DNA of 32,000 nt. It comes from Acholeplasma laidlawii PG-8A. GTDB taxonomy: Bacteria > Bacillota_I > Bacilli_A > Acholeplasmatales > Acholeplasmataceae. The notes beneath the pieces were generated by a model. That model was not told the DNA's origin. It was given only the letters and a program-made list of their open reading frames with translations, and did not search any database. Positions 2,725 to 17,457 of the stretch are shown here, one piece after another. The stretch spans positions 660,001 through 692,000 of the forward strand of contig NC_010163.1 in assembly GCF_000018785.1 (NCBI RefSeq). The letters are read 5' to 3'. The position numbers and the translations under genes were made by a program. Numbering within the stretch: position 1 is the stretch's first letter; the number at the start of each line of letters is the position of its first letter.

Positions 2725-3732
2725 ATGAAAGAAAAAGACATTAAAGAAATAGAAGATATTTTAGGCTATACTTTTACAAATAAAAATTTATTAATTCAAG
2801 CCTTTACTCGAAGTTCTGAAAGAGAAAAAAATAACAATCGCGATTCTGAGATATTAGAGTTCATCGGAGATACTGTAATTAATTATGTAATTATTCAAAT
2901 GTTTAATAATAATTTGTTTAATGCAGATAATTACGGATTGAATTCTCAATATTCTGAGGGTGAGTTGACAGAATTAAAAAGCTTAATAGTAGAAAATAAA
3001 AATTTAGCCGCAAAAATAGACGATTTTGGTCTTGATCGTTTTTTAAGATCCGACAACTCAAAACAAATACCTTCATCTTTCAAAAGTGACTTATTAGAAA
3101 GCATTGTGGGGGCTATCGCAATCGATTCTCATTATGAAGAAAAGGAAATATATGAAATAGTAGATTATTTGTTAATGCCTCGTGCTTATATAGGGTCCTT
3201 AAAATTTAATTATTATTTAAAATTGAAACAATGGTGTAAAATTAGATGTACTTCATCAAATAAATTAAAAGAAAATGTAGAAGAAATTAAGAATGATAAC
3301 AACATACAGTATAAGACAACTTTGCGATTTGGTAACTATGAAGTAAGTGCTATAGATAATAGTAAAATAGATTCATTGTTTGAAGCTTCCATACTTGCCA
3401 TGAAAAAAATTACAGATAATAAAGATGAAATAACCATTAAAGATTTTTTAGTAGGCTTAGATCAAAATAACGGTTGGAGCTATCTTCAAAAAATCCAAAA
3501 ATTAGGCTATTGTTCCAACCTTTCAAAAGAATATAAGAAGAATGAAGATGGAACTTGGAAAGCGACATATATGGTTGACGGTATGCGAACATTGTACACT
3601 GATACCAATAAAAAAAATGCTGGAAATATATGTGCACTAATCTGCATCAACTCTTTAATTGAACCACGTTTCCAAATGGACGATAGTATCTTGGAGCTTT
3701 TAAGAAAATTAAATTATAAAGAAACGGCTTGA
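2725..3732 (+). CDS. Atypical RNase III-domain protein with an extended C-terminus carrying two dsRBD-like segments
   Basis: The N-terminus carries the RNase III signature SEILEFIGDTV (nt 2848-2871; compare ERLEFLGDAVL). The second catalytic block is SDLLESIVGAIAID (compare DxxEAxxGAxxxD). The C-terminal ~180 aa contain two segments ending in helices like the dsRBD alpha-2 helix: YKTTLRFGNYEVSAIDNSKIDSLFEASILAMKKI and WKATYMVDGMRTLYTDTNKKNAGNICALICINSL. At 335 aa it is longer than a typical bacterial Rnc (about 225-250 aa). Confidence 0.75.
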   Translation: MKEKDIKEIEDILGYTFTNKNLLIQAFTRSSEREKNNNRDSEILEFIGDTVINYVIIQMFNNNLFNADNYGLNSQYSEGELTELKSLIVENKNLAAKIDDFGLDRFLRSDNSKQIPSSFKSDLLESIVGAIAIDSHYEEKEIYEIVDYLLMPRAYIGSLKFNYYLKLKQWCKIRCTSSNKLKENVEEIKNDNNIQYKTTLRFGNYEVSAIDNSKIDSLFEASILAMKKITDNKDEITIKDFLVGLDQNNGWSYLQKIQKLGYCSNLSKEYKKNEDGTWKATYMVDGMRTLYTDTNKKNAGNICALICINSLIEPRFQMDDSILELLRKLNYKETA

Positions 3733-3753
3733 GCCACTTGTTAAGCCGAAAAT

Positions 3754-3813
3754 TAGGGGTGCGTAAATTTTAATAGGGGTGCGCAAATTTTAGTAGGGGT
3801 GCGTAATTGTATT
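3754..3813. repeat. Three head-to-tail 20-bp direct repeats: TAGGGGTGCG(T/C)AAATTTTA(A/G)
   Basis: Read directly. Unit 1 is 3754-3773 (TAGGGGTGCGTAAATTTTAA), unit 2 is 3774-3793 (TAGGGGTGCGCAAATTTTAG), and unit 3 is 3794-3813 (TAGGGGTGCGTAATTGTATT). The period is exactly 20 bp with no spacers. The array starts 22 nt after the RNase III-like stop codon. Confidence 0.9.
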
Positions 3814-3834
3814 AAAATAGGTCACCCAACACAG

Positions 3835-3869
3835 TCGAGTAATGGGGACTTGAACCCTATAAATCACTC
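3835..3869 (-). other. tRNA-like acceptor/T-arm minihelix fragment (possible tRNA 3'-end remnant or att-site relic)
   Basis: The minus strand reads GAGTGAT-TTA-TAGGG-TTCAAGT-CCCCA-TTACTCGA. It contains a T-loop-like GGTTCAAGTCC (plus-strand 3846-3856). GAGTGAT can pair with ATTACTC, with one G-U pair. No D or anticodon arm and no CCA follow, so it is not an intact tRNA. Confidence 0.25.
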
Positions 3870-4139
3870 TTTTGATGAAGGAATCAAACATTGTAATTGT
3901 ACCTGGTGATCTAGTGGAAAAACCAGTAAATATGTTACTTTGGTATTATAGACAGTTTTTGAGTATGTAAAGGTAAACATATTTTTGCCGATTTTGATGT
4001 TACTTTGATACACACAAGGTTGATTTTGCAAGCAATTCGGTCGCATCAACGCACGTTGAAAGTATTGTATTACTTGAATTAAAAATGTCTATGTAAAGCT
4101 ATCAAATAAACTATAAAAACTATTTATCTATAAGATTTA

Positions 4140-4170
4140 GGCTGGAAATTCATATTTCCAACCTTTTTTT
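4140..4170 (+). terminator. Rho-independent terminator closing the transcript that runs through the RNase III-like gene and its ~400-nt 3' non-coding region
   Basis: GGCTGGAAAT (4140-4149), loop TCAT, ATTTCCAACC (4154-4163): a 10-bp stem with one mismatch, followed by T7 (4164-4170). There is no U-tract on the other strand. Confidence 0.7.
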
Positions 4171-4618
4171 ATTAAGTCTATTTTTCTAATGTATTGTGAG
4201 AGCGTTTTGCGTGATTAGAATATTTTTAATAGGTTATGGAATAATAAATTTGAATTTGATTTTAATATGATGGATTGGATCAGTAAATGTACCCTCTGCA
4301 ACTGGTCTTTGTGTGAAGGACTTATCAATATTTGTGATATGGAAAGTGAGCATAACAAATCAAATTATATTATTTCATAACTTATATTGGATTATATGAT
4401 ACAGTAGGGATATAATATCGAGATGTTTTTCCAGGCATTAAGTATGAATTAACATATATTTGTAGAAAGGGAGATGATGTAAGATGTATAGTTAACAAAT
4501 GTCTTGACATAGTAACAGTTTTTAATATGTTCTATAGTTATAAACGTGATAAGTATCTAAAAGATAAGATAAATATACAAAATATGCAACAAAAATAGAA
4601 TAGGAGTTTTGAGGAAAT

Positions 4619-5092
4619 ATGAAAAAACTATTTTTATCAAGGTTTATAATAGGGGGAGTCTTGATTTTATGTTTAGGATTATTAGCTGGATGTGAAAACA
4701 GTATGTATAAGGAAGTTGATTTTGGTGGAACATTCTCAAGTCCGGGAATTAACATTGAACCCTTACTAATTAAGGAATACGATGAATTAGTTTCCTTATT
4801 TAATGAGTATGAGATTGAGTGGGAAAATGGATTGGCAATATGGGAGCGATATGATAAAGGTTATTTTAAGAATAAGGCACTAATAATTTATGTCTTTGGG
4901 GTTTCTGGCGATGTAGAACCCCTTATAACAATTGATGGAGTGCAAGTTGATGATAATATTATTAAAGTTTTACTTGTTCAGCACGGAACAACAACTGGAC
5001 TTGCATATTTCCAAAAAAACCTTGTCATAGAAGTAACCAAAAGTTTTATTGGTAAGACAACTAGTGTAGAAGTTGATATCAAAGTTAAATAA
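4619..5092 (+). CDS. Putative lipoprotein of unknown function
   Basis: 157-aa ORF. SD GAGGAAAT lies 5 nt upstream. The signal peptide ends in the lipobox LLAGC (MKKLFLSRFIIGGVLILCLGLLAG|C). The mature part is soluble and beta-rich. A faint resemblance to PrcB_C-type lipoproteins is my impression only. Confidence 0.7.
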   Translation: MKKLFLSRFIIGGVLILCLGLLAGCENSMYKEVDFGGTFSSPGINIEPLLIKEYDELVSLFNEYEIEWENGLAIWERYDKGYFKNKALIIYVFGVSGDVEPLITIDGVQVDDNIIKVLLVQHGTTTGLAYFQKNLVIEVTKSFIGKTTSVEVDIKVK

Positions 5093-16235: not shown

Positions 16236-16241
16236 GTTTTT

Positions 16242-16470
16242 CAAAGTGATGAAGAAGAGTAGTAATTTATTTAACTTTTCATAGAGAGCTGATGATTGGT
16301 GTAAATCAGTAAAAGTGATGAATGAACGTGCTTTGGAGCTTTTAAATCGAGTTTTGATGAGGTTTAAACGTATGTCGGCGTTAACGATATAAGTGCTAGG
16401 TTTTTAATCTAGAACTAAGGTGGTACCGCGATTAACTCGTCCTTAGACATTATTGTCTAGGGACTTTTTT
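16242..16470 (+). promoter_or_regulatory. T-box riboswitch leader, complete unit (Stem I, T-box sequence, antiterminator/terminator)
   Basis: A GA/K-turn-like region (GTGATGAAG) and AGAGTA come first. The AG bay is AGAGAG (16283-16288). The distal stem is CTGAT/ATCAG with the loop GATTGGTGTAA. The T-box sequence is CTAAGGTGGTACCGCG (16415-16430). The antiterminator pairs CTAAGG (16415-16420) with CCTTAG (16441-16446). The competing terminator is GTCCTTAGACA (16439-16449) / TGTCTAGGGAC (16454-16464) plus T6. The candidate specifier is CGT at 16327-16329, in the loop GAA-CGT-G. Confidence 0.85.
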
Positions 16471-16647: not shown

Positions 16648-17457
16648 ATGATTAAAAAAATGTTATCAATGTTTATGGTGATGGGTGTTATAACGCTCAT
16701 AGTTGGATGTGATATGGGAAGTTCAAATACATTCACATTTATTATTGATGAATCTTATGATGAATATATTACAATGGGAACATCTGCAGACTATGCACCA
16801 TATGAATGGTTAGTAAAAGATGAAAATAATAACCAAACAGTTGTTGGTATTGATATTGAAATTGCTAAAGTTATCGCTAAACATGCTGGTAAAAACTTAA
16901 AAGTAATTCATAAAGGATTTGATTTTTTACTAGAAGACTTAGCAGATGGTCGTGTTGACTTTGTCATCTCAGCAATGACACCAACACCTGAACGTGCAGA
17001 AATTGTAGATTTTTCAACTGTCTATTACATGGCCACACAAGTCGTATTAATTGAAACTAAAAATATGGATGTATATACTTCAGTAGCGTCTATGAACCTT
17101 TCTAATATTAGAATAGGCGCACAGTTAGGTTCTATCCAACAAGATTATGCAAATGATCTATTTGATGCACCTCAAAAACAATTTATTCAAGCAGTACCTG
17201 ACTTAGTGTTAGGGTTAACAAGCGGTCAATTAGCTGGTGTAATTATGGAAAAACCAGTTGCTGAAGGTTATATCAATAATATGACGAGTCTTTCTATTGC
17301 AAACTTTACACTAGGTAATCCAGAAGATGGATCTGCTGTTGCTGTAAGAAAGGGAAATAAAGCACTACTAGAACTTATCAATGATACAATTCAAATACTC
17401 CAAGAATCAGGTCAAATCGAGCAGTTTGTTAAAGATAGTGTTTTATTAAATAGTTAA
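16648..17457 (+). CDS. Polar amino acid ABC transporter substrate-binding lipoprotein (family 3 SBP)
   Basis: Signal peptide with lipobox LIVGC. Contains SADYAPYEW, GIDIEIAK..., DFVISAMTPTPER and VDFS, typical of His/Arg/Gln/cystine-type binding proteins. SD AAAGGAG is present. Confidence 0.85.
   Translation: MIKKMLSMFMVMGVITLIVGCDMGSSNTFTFIIDESYDEYITMGTSADYAPYEWLVKDENNNQTVVGIDIEIAKVIAKHAGKNLKVIHKGFDFLLEDLADGRVDFVISAMTPTPERAEIVDFSTVYYMATQVVLIETKNMDVYTSVASMNLSNIRIGAQLGSIQQDYANDLFDAPQKQFIQAVPDLVLGLTSGQLAGVIMEKPVAEGYINNMTSLSIANFTLGNPEDGSAVAVRKGNKALLELINDTIQILQESGQIEQFVKDSVLLNS

Follow-up and report, generated by a model that had tools for sequence, protein, structure and literature searches.

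A rare RNase III with two predicted dsRBDs in a defence island of Acholeplasma laidlawii, a candidate accessory nuclease in conflicts with phages or mobile elements

The DNA analysed here (the window) is a stretch of 32,000 nucleotides from Acholeplasma laidlawii PG-8A (contig NC_010163.1, positions 660,001 to 692,000). Close to its 5' end, a gene encoding an RNase III protein is found between the genes of a defence island and a non-coding stretch that leads to ordinary chromosomal genes. The features of this region are the following:

35 to 2631, + strand: island context 5' of the gene, with McrC (35 to 1261) and small HExxH / SprT-like proteins (1348 to 1857 and 1951 to 2631)
2632 to 2724, + strand: upstream intergenic region with a ribosome-binding site (sequence, comparison with homologous loci)
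2725 to 3732, + strand: complete ORF (RNase III catalytic domain, predicted dsRBD1, conserved linker, predicted dsRBD2, C-terminal helix)
2725 to 3174, + strand: RNase III catalytic domain, residues 1-150 (Pfam PF00636/PF14622, Foldseek, AF2 secondary structure)
2848 to 2871, + strand: signature EILEFIGD with the metal-binding, catalytic acidic residues E42, E45 and D49 (read from the sequence)
3088 to 3114, + strand: second catalytic motif DLLESIVGA with D122 and E125 (read from the sequence)
3199 to 3417, + strand: predicted diverged dsRBD1, residues 159-231 (AF2 topology, TIGR02191 coverage, hhalign, profile bridging)
3418 to 3471, + strand: inter-domain linker, residues 232-249 (family alignment)
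3472 to 3660, + strand: predicted diverged dsRBD2, residues 250-312 (AF2, Foldseek, hhalign, weak Pfam dsrm)
3733 to 4618, no strand assigned: non-coding stretch of 886 nt between the RNase III gene and the ordinary chromosomal genes
3754 to 3813, within the non-coding stretch: three 20-nt tandem repeats
4140 to 4170, + strand, within the non-coding stretch: hairpin with a T-run

The ORF starts with an ATG and encodes a protein of 335 aa (ABX81253.1 / A9NFX3), whose record name is "ribonuclease III domain-containing protein"; NCBI names it only as a "domain-containing" or "family" protein. An intact, identical copy occurs on each of 21 contigs drawn from several assemblies. A Shine-Dalgarno-like motif, GGAAAGG, lies about 10 nt 5' of the start codon. 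In the homologous loci, the DNA block in common begins about 60-90 nt 5' of the start codon and everything further upstream differs. This suggests that the gene has its own promoter; together with its upstream region it makes up a self-contained cassette.

The N-terminal part carries a genuine catalytic domain with an intact active site, in an enzyme that is apparently active. The protein belongs to the RNase III superfamily (PF00636/PF14622), Ribonuclease_3 (E=2.4e-13, residues 43-135) and Ribonucleas_3_3 (E=2.4e-10) both scoring above their gathering score. A phmmer search of PDB retrieves the C. jejuni RNase III (4.5e-12), then Drosha and Dicer, well outside chance, and Foldseek matches the domain to the Aquifex and E. 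coli RNase III, Drosha and Dicer. Both catalytic signatures reported by the first-pass annotation are indeed present, and their five acidic residues, E42, E45, D49, D122 and E125, equivalent to Aquifex E37, E40, D44, D107 and E110, are invariant in the 15 family members aligned (15/15). The domain also carries a clade-specific beta-hairpin insert (residues 65-74).

The C-terminal half was initially described as resembling two degenerate dsRBDs, and its structure prediction and comparison with dsRBD folds agree with this description. The full-length AF2 model (pLDDT 88.3) contains two successive alpha-beta-beta-beta-alpha domains, H159-174/E182-190/E193-202/E205-211/H214-231 and H250-259/E266-272/E278-284/E287-293/H296-312, followed by a short C-terminal helix (residues 320-328); the second domain modelled alone reaches a pLDDT of 92.4. 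The two segments that had drawn attention, NSKIDSLFEASILAMKKI (residues 212-229) and NKKNAGNICALICINSL (residues 295-311), are the second helices of predicted domains 1 and 2, respectively. The linker between the domains (residues 232-249) is the best-conserved part of the C-terminal half, with the conserved sequence EITIKDFL..ENNG, I236, D240, F241, L242 and N249 being invariant.

When searched with dsRBD2 alone, Foldseek returns from PDB about 40 best matches that are nearly all dsRBDs (RDE-4, DGCR8, Loqs, ADAR, Staufen, TRBP), with probabilities of 0.85-1.0 but E-values of only 0.03-0.3. In the sequence of the A. laidlawii protein, this domain gives a weak Pfam dsrm match (residues 273-311, E=0.03, 15.3 bits vs a 23-bit cut-off). 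The position of dsRBD1 is covered by the TIGR02191 alignment, which spans residues 10-216; Pfam dsrm is below threshold there in the A. laidlawii protein and reaches E=0.0011 in another family member (L016). Direct comparison by hhalign puts dsRBD1 in register with canonical dsRBDs, but weakly (E=0.0014), and finds no match between dsRBD2 and a small canonical dsRBD profile. In the same way, neither C-terminal domain, searched as a profile against PDB sequences, matches a dsRBD.

Since these direct profile comparisons fell short, the two domains were bridged to canonical dsRBDs through relatives of 340-350 aa, in which Pfam dsrm and Dicer_dimer are above threshold. The family profile is collinear with these relatives over 320 columns (E=1.1e-52), and the canonical dsRBD profile matches them twice, at 170-242 and 256-329, each with about 97% probability. 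Domain 1 aligns with their middle domain, which matches the canonical dsRBD profile at 96.8% probability, and domain 2 aligns with their Pfam-positive C-terminal dsrm at 95.7% probability (hhalign, E=8.4e-9). Models and profiles together thus support the view that both C-terminal domains are strongly diverged dsRBD folds, homologous to canonical dsRBDs.

In RNA-binding dsRBDs of type A, RNA is contacted by helix 1, by the GPxH loop, which reaches the minor groove, and by KKxAK at the N-terminal end of helix 2. As noted from the sequence at the outset, no GPxH-type motif is visible, and the family alignment indicates that it is absent from both domains. At the start of helix 2, dsRBD1 keeps S213-K214, one of the two helix-2 lysines, and dsRBD2 keeps N-K-K-x-A, with a conserved D275/W278 loop in place of GPxH. 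Considering the missing GPxH loops and the single helix-2 lysine of dsRBD1, one of the two domains may therefore bind protein rather than RNA.

The family defined by this protein is very rare. Its full-length homologs amount to one among 185,579 GTDB species genomes, a count that leaves out the A. laidlawii locus itself, which did not appear in the scan. The A. laidlawii-type C-terminus has diverged so far that, among 1.84 billion representatives searched exhaustively with an HMM, only the four 50%-identity clusters of the family itself are retrieved. Family members share only 44-53% identity, yet about 50 positions are invariant in addition to the catalytic residues.

This family belongs to a wider clade of uncharacterised Bacillota RNase III enzymes, recognisable by the pattern QAFTR...SEVLEF.GD. 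The clade includes two-dsRBD proteins of 340-480 aa from gut and rumen Clostridia and from Acholeplasmatales MAGs, as well as 277-aa forms on IMG/VR viral contigs that match phrog_28637. These relatives share the catalytic subtype and the collinear RNase III-dsRBD-dsRBD layout of the A. laidlawii protein but retain recognisable Pfam dsrm domains. Of 80 related loci from species-level genomes, mostly of uncultured gut and rumen Clostridia, no fewer than 43 show two dsRBD matches. The initial remark that a tandem-dsRBD enzyme would be unusual for bacteria is thus right as to the two domains, whereas the rarity was overstated, as these Pfam-confirmed relatives indicate.

Bacterial RNase III is described as having one catalytic domain and one dsRBD (for instance in the review PMC3867540). 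The best sequence and fold matches of the A. laidlawii protein are bacterial class-1 Rnc enzymes (TIGR02191; 2EZ6/2NUG from Aquifex, 7R97 from E. coli, 3N3W from C. jejuni), with which it shares a single catalytic domain, the same acidic residues and a dsRBD in matching position. [quoted passage not shown] Its TIGR02191 score, 80.8 bits, is about half of the 166.25-bit equivalog cut-off. The near-universal presence and housekeeping synteny of rnc (rnc-smc/era) are not seen in its family, which lies in defence-island contexts.

RNase III has been reported in nearly all Mollicutes, the exception being M. suis (PMC4014445), and some two-dsRBD relatives from Clostridia lie near rimM-trmD or pheT. 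Both observations would fit a protein that is simply the A. laidlawii housekeeping rnc, extended at its C-terminus in this lineage. Taken with the rarity of the family, the same statement on Mollicutes also lends indirect support to a second, canonical rnc in the A. laidlawii genome. The matches of searches seeded with the 335-aa protein and with L078 include no named A. laidlawii rnc, and a protein search seeded with a 246-aa RNase III from Acholeplasmatales returns the extended clade only. Against such an identity stand not only the score far under the equivalog cut-off but also the lack of any full-length counterpart in other Acholeplasma or Mollicutes species representatives, the place of the gene between McrBC and the island edge, beside prophage remnants, and a neighbourhood that is different in every homolog. 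This makes the housekeeping identity extremely improbable. Judged by its score, its extreme rarity and its varying defence-island contexts, the protein is not the standard rnc of the clade in housekeeping synteny, and its first-pass labelling as a paralog is probably right.

Other known enzymes resemble it in part. Budding-yeast Dcr1 (Kluyveromyces/Pichia) and plant RTL2 have an RNase III domain followed by two dsRBDs and work on long dsRNA as homodimers. Likewise, DCL3 and DCL4 end in an RNase IIIb domain with two dsRBDs after it, and Foldseek with the full model gives DCL3 (7VG2) as the best match, with 370 aligned columns, DCL4 (9KBZ) with 371 columns, and also Dcr1 (7DEY). However, the sequence kinship between these eukaryotic enzymes and the bacterial protein is confined to the common domains. 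Its catalytic core is preceded by only about 40 residues, without the dimerisation domain that Dcr1 has at its N-terminus, and the protein shows neither a PAZ nor a helicase domain, so that the resemblance to Dicer is one of layout only. Membership of the Dicer or Dcr1 type was rejected for lack of these three domains. No Argonaute gene occurs among the Pfam annotations of the loci examined. Mini-III (MrnC/YazC) is another specialised RNase III of Bacillota that occurs as a second paralog, but it has zero dsRBDs; the two dsRBD folds led to the rejection of this identity too.

Several RNase III enzymes of giant or other eukaryotic viruses act in virus-host RNA conflict. The predicted structures of those from Pithovirus, Cedratvirus (339 aa), ascovirus and iridovirus align with the A. 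laidlawii model over 350-390 columns, C-terminal domains included, with 13-17% identity, and nothing indicates common descent beyond the domain level. The RNase III of SPCSV is the topic of PMC8315922, going by its title.

In the A. laidlawii genome, the island extends further upstream (L001) with McrB, a Trypsin_2 protein, serine-recombinase fragments and prophage holins. About ten different neighbourhoods of the gene family were compared, and all are defence islands or integrative elements, McrBC being the A. laidlawii case. The genes found beside homologs are Eco57I, UvrD and a DUF2075 helicase; a type I R-M system; an SNF2 helicase, a Dam-like methyltransferase and a serine recombinase; a PDC-S53 helicase, Abi_2 and DUF4365; PbeC/DndD-like and PDC-S57 genes beside a tRNA-Leu; T5orf172; or DUF2326 and PDC-S46. 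PADLOC candidate systems are among these neighbours. The association covers the narrow A. laidlawii family, L018 and L103. The context thus shows that the gene travels in defence islands and in integrative elements with a serine recombinase, in Acholeplasma as well as in other Bacillota. At the A. laidlawii locus, neither the window nor L001 holds a tRNA that could serve as att site, a T-arm-like 23-mer is not repeated in the 10 kb upstream, and the 222/238-aa partner ORF of relatives is absent from the window (tblastn). No PADLOC-DB v2.0 family matches the 335-aa protein, even at E ≤ 1.

The recombinase near the gene survives in fragments and several strains have a split McrB, which, together with the absent partner ORF, might point to a decaying or functionless passenger of the island. 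This is scarcely credible for an ORF that is intact and identical on 21 contigs, that yields confident AF2 models and whose family keeps its catalytic residues and about 50 positions invariant at 44-53% identity.

The 886-nt stretch downstream of the gene is probably the edge or scar of the island. Within it, the three TAGGGGTGCG repeats at 20-nt intervals are non-random (0/100 shuffles gave three matches). Read-through transcription is plausible, because no strong terminator lies right behind the stop codon and the hairpin with a T-run lies at 4140-4170. These features could suit an enzyme that processes a cis-encoded RNA, either its own long 3' UTR or a repeat-bearing sRNA in 3733-4170. However, Rfam has no match in 3600-4700 even at E ≤ 1 (in the whole window it finds only a T-box, far from the gene), and the folding of 3733-4175 (+ strand) and 3715-4095 (- strand) gives ordinary z-scores of -0.6 and -1.1. 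The repeats form no long duplex such as RNase III requires. Searched by blastn and tblastx against 15 loci, the stretch matches only A. laidlawii itself; nothing like it adjoins the homologs and the repeats are not conserved. Processing of a cis-encoded RNA is therefore very unlikely, and the early proposal that the enzyme targets the adjacent repeat transcript is not supported.

As the gene and its few relatives are always found among anti-phage defence genes, it is a candidate gene of RNA-directed immunity or of mobile elements. This role is proposed by guilt by association, from defence-context loci drawn from few related lineages. With slightly more belief than doubt, the protein is taken to be a class-1-type RNase III that is accessory, moves horizontally and takes part in conflicts between host and phage or with mobile elements. 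By the established mechanism of RNase III enzymes, it would dimerise through its catalytic domain, bind Mg2+ by E42, E45, D49, D122 and E125 and make staggered cuts in double-stranded RNA. With a single catalytic domain followed by dsRBD1 and, after a rigidly conserved linker, by dsRBD2, the dimer would carry four dsRBDs rather than two. Such a dimer would have a longer RNA footprint and would prefer long, regular duplexes to the short hairpins that the housekeeping RNase III cleaves.

Within this proposal, the favoured version is a single-gene defence that would cleave the long dsRNA of invading phages or elements, for example that of sense/antisense transcript pairs. Phage dsRNA is a plausible target by association with the defence-island context. 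The fuller form of this idea, a stand-alone immune nuclease that would recognise long dsRNA as a signature of infection and dice the duplex, is possible but rather doubtful. In that form, several four-dsRBD dimers would align on the duplex in the manner of the budding-yeast Dcr1, whose mechanism is called "inside-out".

Host defence has its counterpoints: relatives from the same catalytic clade lie on IMG/VR viral contigs, and one relative lies beside an SCC-like ccr module. An element-serving or anti-defence role thus fits these relatives as well as host defence does. The gene could belong to the backbone of serine-recombinase integrative elements or of prophages, a reading that is tentative and on the unlikely side. 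It might process or regulate RNAs of the element, such as those of antisense-controlled toxins or of replication and excision regulators; the RNase III of B. subtilis is known to silence prophage toxin genes (PMC3531473). By analogy with the RNase III silencing suppressors of eukaryotic viruses, it might instead destroy dsRNA that would otherwise trigger the immunity of the host. Two homologous loci (L008 and L012) have related ends (75% for recombinase-HTH_17-HTH_36, 84% for the RNase III block) that enclose different cargo, and a relative adjoins a DUF960/DUF1643/DUF927/serine-recombinase module. The 277-aa viral-contig forms with their phrog_28637 match, the recombinase fragments and prophage holins upstream of the A. 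laidlawii gene and the full-length alignment of giant-virus RNase III enzymes point the same way. However, no full-length homolog was found in 50,697 phage and 72,556 plasmid records, most loci have no recombinase within 10 kb and both flanks vary. The downstream region offers no convincing small ORF for a type I toxin and the window no convincing antisense pair beside the gene. Furthermore, anti-defence genes are seldom fixed in chromosomal islands once the recombinase of their element has decayed.

A literature search brought up neither an RNase III-based defence system nor a tandem-dsRBD RNase III of bacteria, the sole related item being HEPN-RNase III fusions (PMC3710099). The present analysis shows a bacterial RNase III in which tandem dsRBDs are predicted by confident models, within a larger unstudied clade of Bacillota, one very rare branch of which lies consistently inside defence islands and integrative elements. 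If this branch acts on the dsRNA of phages or elements, dsRNA would be one more molecular pattern put to use in conflicts by bacteria or by their mobile elements, in parallel to the biology of eukaryotic Dicer/RTL and viral RNase III enzymes. If the enzyme is an immune nuclease, it would correspond, in prokaryotes, to the antiviral RNases of the Dicer/RTL type and would be the first bacterial defence system in which a single gene is directed at dsRNA. The predicted four-dsRBD dimer would also be a natural experiment on the effect of extra dsRBDs on the selection of substrate length and on product size.

The RNase III gene has the coordinates and length given in the first-pass annotation, starts with ATG and is preceded by an SD-like GGAAAGG. 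An identical protein is on record as Acholeplasma laidlawii ABX81253.1 / A9NFX3; several assemblies of this species carry it, on 21 contigs in all and at the same locus every time. Its NCBI name is "ribonuclease III domain-containing protein" or "family protein" rather than plain "ribonuclease III".

2725-3732, + strand: RNase III gene, ATG start, 335 aa
2848-2871, + strand: EILEFIGD motif (residues 42-49), read in the ORF
from 3088, + strand: DLLESIVGA motif (from D122), read in the ORF
residues 1-150 (AlphaFold2 model): RNase III domain
domain 1, dsRBD1 (AlphaFold2 model): helix 159-174, strands 182-190, 193-202 and 205-211, helix 214-231
domain 2, dsRBD2 (AlphaFold2 model): helix 250-259, strands 266-272, 278-284 and 287-293, helix 296-312
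residues 320-328 (AlphaFold2 model): short C-terminal helix

The active site is intact, as initially proposed: both catalytic motifs are present, and the acidic residues E42, E45, D49, D122 and E125 are invariant in an alignment of about 15 family members. Pfam Ribonuclease_3 (E=2.4e-13) and Ribonucleas_3_3 (E=2.4e-10) both exceed their gathering scores, and a PDB sequence search leads to bacterial RNase III, Drosha and Dicer. By analogy with the well-established RNase III mechanism, the protein would form homodimers and catalyse Mg2+-dependent staggered cleavage of dsRNA.

The C-terminal half had been described as two degenerate dsRBDs. This is correct, given the fold matches, the homology traced through intermediates and the Pfam matches of relatives. 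In an AlphaFold2 model built on the family alignment (mean pLDDT 88.3, pTM 0.75), this half forms two alpha-beta-beta-beta-alpha units, and structural comparison identifies both as dsRBD folds. The best Foldseek match of the whole model in the PDB is Arabidopsis DCL3 (370 aligned columns; 371 for DCL4). Aquifex and E. coli RNase III align over about 230 columns and, since this alignment takes in their dsRBD, domain 1 is the counterpart of the canonical dsRBD. The matches of domain 2 modelled by itself (pLDDT 92.4) are almost without exception dsRBDs (RDE-4, DGCR8, Loquacious, ADAR, Staufen, NF90, TRBP), with probabilities of 0.85-1.0, TM-scores of 0.45-0.6 and E-values no better than 0.03-0.3, in line with the small size (70 residues) of the fold.

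Both dsRBDs are strongly diverged in sequence. Pfam dsrm is matched weakly (15.3 bits for a cut-off of 23, residues 273-311), and profile searches with each C-terminal domain against PDB sequences give no dsRBD match. A small canonical dsRBD profile aligns with domain 1 in register but weakly (E=0.0014), and not with domain 2. The GPxH motif, already reported as not visible, is absent from both domains, whose second helices keep S213-K214 (dsRBD1) and N-K-K-x-A (dsRBD2) at their N-terminus. The linker EITIKDFL..L.ENNG is the most conserved stretch of the C-terminal half in the family alignment. Homology to dsRBDs was reached through intermediate relatives of 340-350 aa, with which the family profile is collinear over 320 columns (probability 100%, E=1.1e-52). 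The canonical dsRBD profile matches these relatives twice (170-242 and 256-329, about 97% probability each), and their C-terminal domain matches domain 2 (95.7% probability, E=8.4e-9). In Pfam, the wider relative L018 carries dsrm (270-334, 42 bits) and Dicer_dimer, which has a dsRBD fold (176-252, 26.8 bits), and several Clostridia relatives carry two dsrm stretches. With four dsRBDs per predicted dimer, this architecture would give a longer RNA footprint and thus a preference for long duplexes.

The same layout is found in budding-yeast Dcr1, plant RTL2, DCL C-termini and some giant-virus RNase IIIs, but their extra domains are absent from the A. laidlawii protein, which in sequence is not more closely related to them. 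It is not a Mini-III. It shares the working mode of class-1 RNase III (Rnc) but differs in three defining features, i.e., score, single dsRBD and synteny: TIGR02191, the NCBIfam equivalog for the housekeeping enzyme, aligns with residues 10-216 at 80.8 bits (cut-off 166.25). This score, the rarity of the family and a variable, defence-rich context make it unlikely that the protein is the housekeeping RNase III of A. laidlawii. All three are those of an accessory RNase III and not, as the first-pass annotation had also envisaged, of the standard rnc of a clade in housekeeping synteny.

Very few proteins belong to the narrow family. When 5.8 billion proteins were searched by word index, no more than about 15 full-length relatives emerged (329-346 aa, 43-85% identity), each of them metagenomic; an HMM of the C-terminal 184 residues, run exhaustively over 1.84 billion representatives, recovers just four clusters at E<1e-30. 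A scan of 185,579 species with one genome each, where the A. laidlawii locus is apparently masked, gives one full-length member, L016, from a Staphylococcaceae MAG; phage and plasmid collections hold no full-length homolog. The tandem-dsRBD layout in itself is no rarity. Gut/rumen Clostridia MAGs in the same scan contributed many RNase IIIs of 330-480 aa that share a catalytic subtype (QAFTR...SEVLEF.GD); a home-made HMM finds two dsRBD matches in 43 of the 80 returned loci (Pfam agreed on samples), and a second protein search adds dozens of 340-390-aa proteins. "Unusual for bacteria", as first put, overstates the case for this layout.

The large clade of 330-480-aa two-dsRBD RNase IIIs from uncultured gut/rumen Clostridia (GTDB loci L017-L095, e.g., L027 9974-11164, L063 9992-11161, L074 2120-3127) is apparently undescribed so far, and literature searches brought up no account of RNase IIIs with tandem dsRBDs in bacteria. 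Some of its genes lie near the housekeeping genes pheT or rimM-trmD; another Oscillospiraceae MAG (L059) has a canonical 225-aa rnc-smc locus. In a cultured organism, the 421-kb megaplasmid pRUMAL01 of Ruminococcus albus 7 (L101 5560-7080) encodes a 506-aa "ribonuclease III domain-containing protein" whose N-terminus is extended by about 145 aa and whose catalytic domain is 30% identical to that of the A. laidlawii protein.

The neighbours of the homologs are entirely different from locus to locus, and nearly all are recognisable defence or mobile-element genes:

L007: Eco57I, UvrD, DUF2075 helicase
L010: type I R-M, DUF2971, DUF3800
L012: recombinase module as in L008, SNF2 helicase, Dam-like methyltransferase
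L013-15: helicase matching PADLOC PDC-S53 (1.9e-288), plus kinase or Abi_2/DUF4365
L016: tRNA-Leu, methyltransferase, helicase, PbeC/DndD-like gene, PDC-S57; IS21 downstream
L097: T5orf172
L099: DUF2326, PDC-S46

The more distant L018 adjoins a DUF2075 helicase. The A. laidlawii protein itself matched no PADLOC model. Four islands (L007 8022-9899; L008 1502-3379; L016 18856-20721; L018 6708-8582) share a DUF2075 / Schlafen-group-3-like helicase (PADLOC PDC-S41, Nhi-like or AbiO-like), whose copies have 67-74% DNA identity and lie at varying distance from the RNase III gene. An intergenic block of about 270 nt, 75-81% identical and without Rfam match at the gathering threshold, recurs 3-7 kb past the RNase III gene, embedded in sequence that is otherwise unrelated (L007 14676-14963; L009 7475-7763; L013 8287-8556; L014 9631-9924).

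From this context, the protein would act in the conflict of the host with phages or mobile elements, and a defence function against dsRNA made by invaders is favoured. The main rival explanation is that the gene serves the mobile element itself, by RNA processing or regulation or by removal of immunostimulatory dsRNA. The conserved ends and variable cargo of L008 and L012 are consistent with it, as are relatives on viral contigs: the RNase IIIs of IMG/VR contigs L105-L114 (276-278 aa, one dsRBD each) are almost identical to one another and belong to the same catalytic subtype. The same is true for P0062, a 348-aa relative with two dsRBDs, encoded a few kb from an SCC-like DUF960-DUF1643-DUF927-large serine recombinase module (L103 12787-17047; L104 7377-11637). 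This module is similar to the ccr gene complex found in staphylococcal cassette chromosomes. The viral-contig proteins match phrog_28637 (unknown function), and their dsRBD, of the W.C.CYI...SKKEAKRYAAY type, resembles the family dsRBD2.

In pairwise DNA comparisons, the part shared between loci starts about 60-90 nt before the start codon and, in a metagenomic subclade, reaches about 900-1000 nt downstream, through an ORF of 222-238 aa; all else differs. The gene thus acts like a small cassette that includes an upstream region of its own. The ORF (MANK..NRL.LIKRYAF..INLYG...), directly 3' of the RNase III gene, may be its partner gene. It is intact in L008 (11134-11802) and L010 (11034-11802), disrupted in L007, L013 and L014 (stop or frameshift), and also found in L012 and L015; it has no Pfam or PHROG match, leaves no trace in A. 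laidlawii and is absent from L016, L097 and L099.

In A. laidlawii, the RNase III gene is preceded, in order, by prophage holins, serine recombinase fragments, a Trypsin_2 protein, McrB, McrC and two small HExxH/SprT-like proteins. It is followed by 886 non-coding nt, then by ordinary chromosomal genes (lipoprotein, HAD hydrolase, acyltransferase, ABC transporter, pseudouridine synthases, maltodextrin genes). The two small proteins (1348-1857, 169 aa; 1951-2631, 226 aa) share an HE..HAYQ metallopeptidase-like motif, the former being weakly SprT-like / DUF3920; they have no PADLOC match and are not found beside RNase III homologs. McrB (4780-7225 in L001-L006) is one 814-aa ORF in the NCTC assembly and split (569 + 256/275 aa) in the other five; the Trypsin_2 and serine recombinase genes are likewise variably fragmented, which points to island decay or sequencing differences. 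Farther along, an operon for an amino-acid ABC transporter (SBP_bac_3 at 16648-17457) is preceded by a T-box leader (16240-16447, 149.6 bits).

The adjacent repeat-containing transcript had been proposed as a substrate, an idea that gains no support here. The repeats are real, but the region shows no Rfam match, unusual folding stability or conservation, and looks more like an island edge than an RNase III substrate. Its features are:

3754-3813: three head-to-tail 20-nt repeats, TAGGGGTGCG(T/C)AAATTTTA(A/G), 22 nt past the RNase III stop codon
3835-3857, - strand: GGGTTCAAGTCCCCATTACTCGA, resembling a tRNA T-arm and acceptor 3' strand
4140-4170, + strand: hairpin GGCTGGAAAT-TCAT-ATTTCCAACC, then T7, about 440 nt past the stop codon

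The 10-mer core of the repeats has no other copy in the window, and none of 100 shuffles reached three matches; these repeats may bind a protein or mark an end of the island. The tRNA-like sequence, possibly left over from an integration site, has no further copy in the 10 kb upstream, and ARAGORN detects tRNAs neither in the window nor in L001. The hairpin looks like an intrinsic terminator, absent from the consensus scan because of one stem mismatch.

The initial observation on this ORF is therefore confirmed and its interpretation partly supported. The protein, annotated in databases and unstudied, represents a known kind of enzyme in a new form, whose genomic context is suggestive of a link to bacterial immunity.
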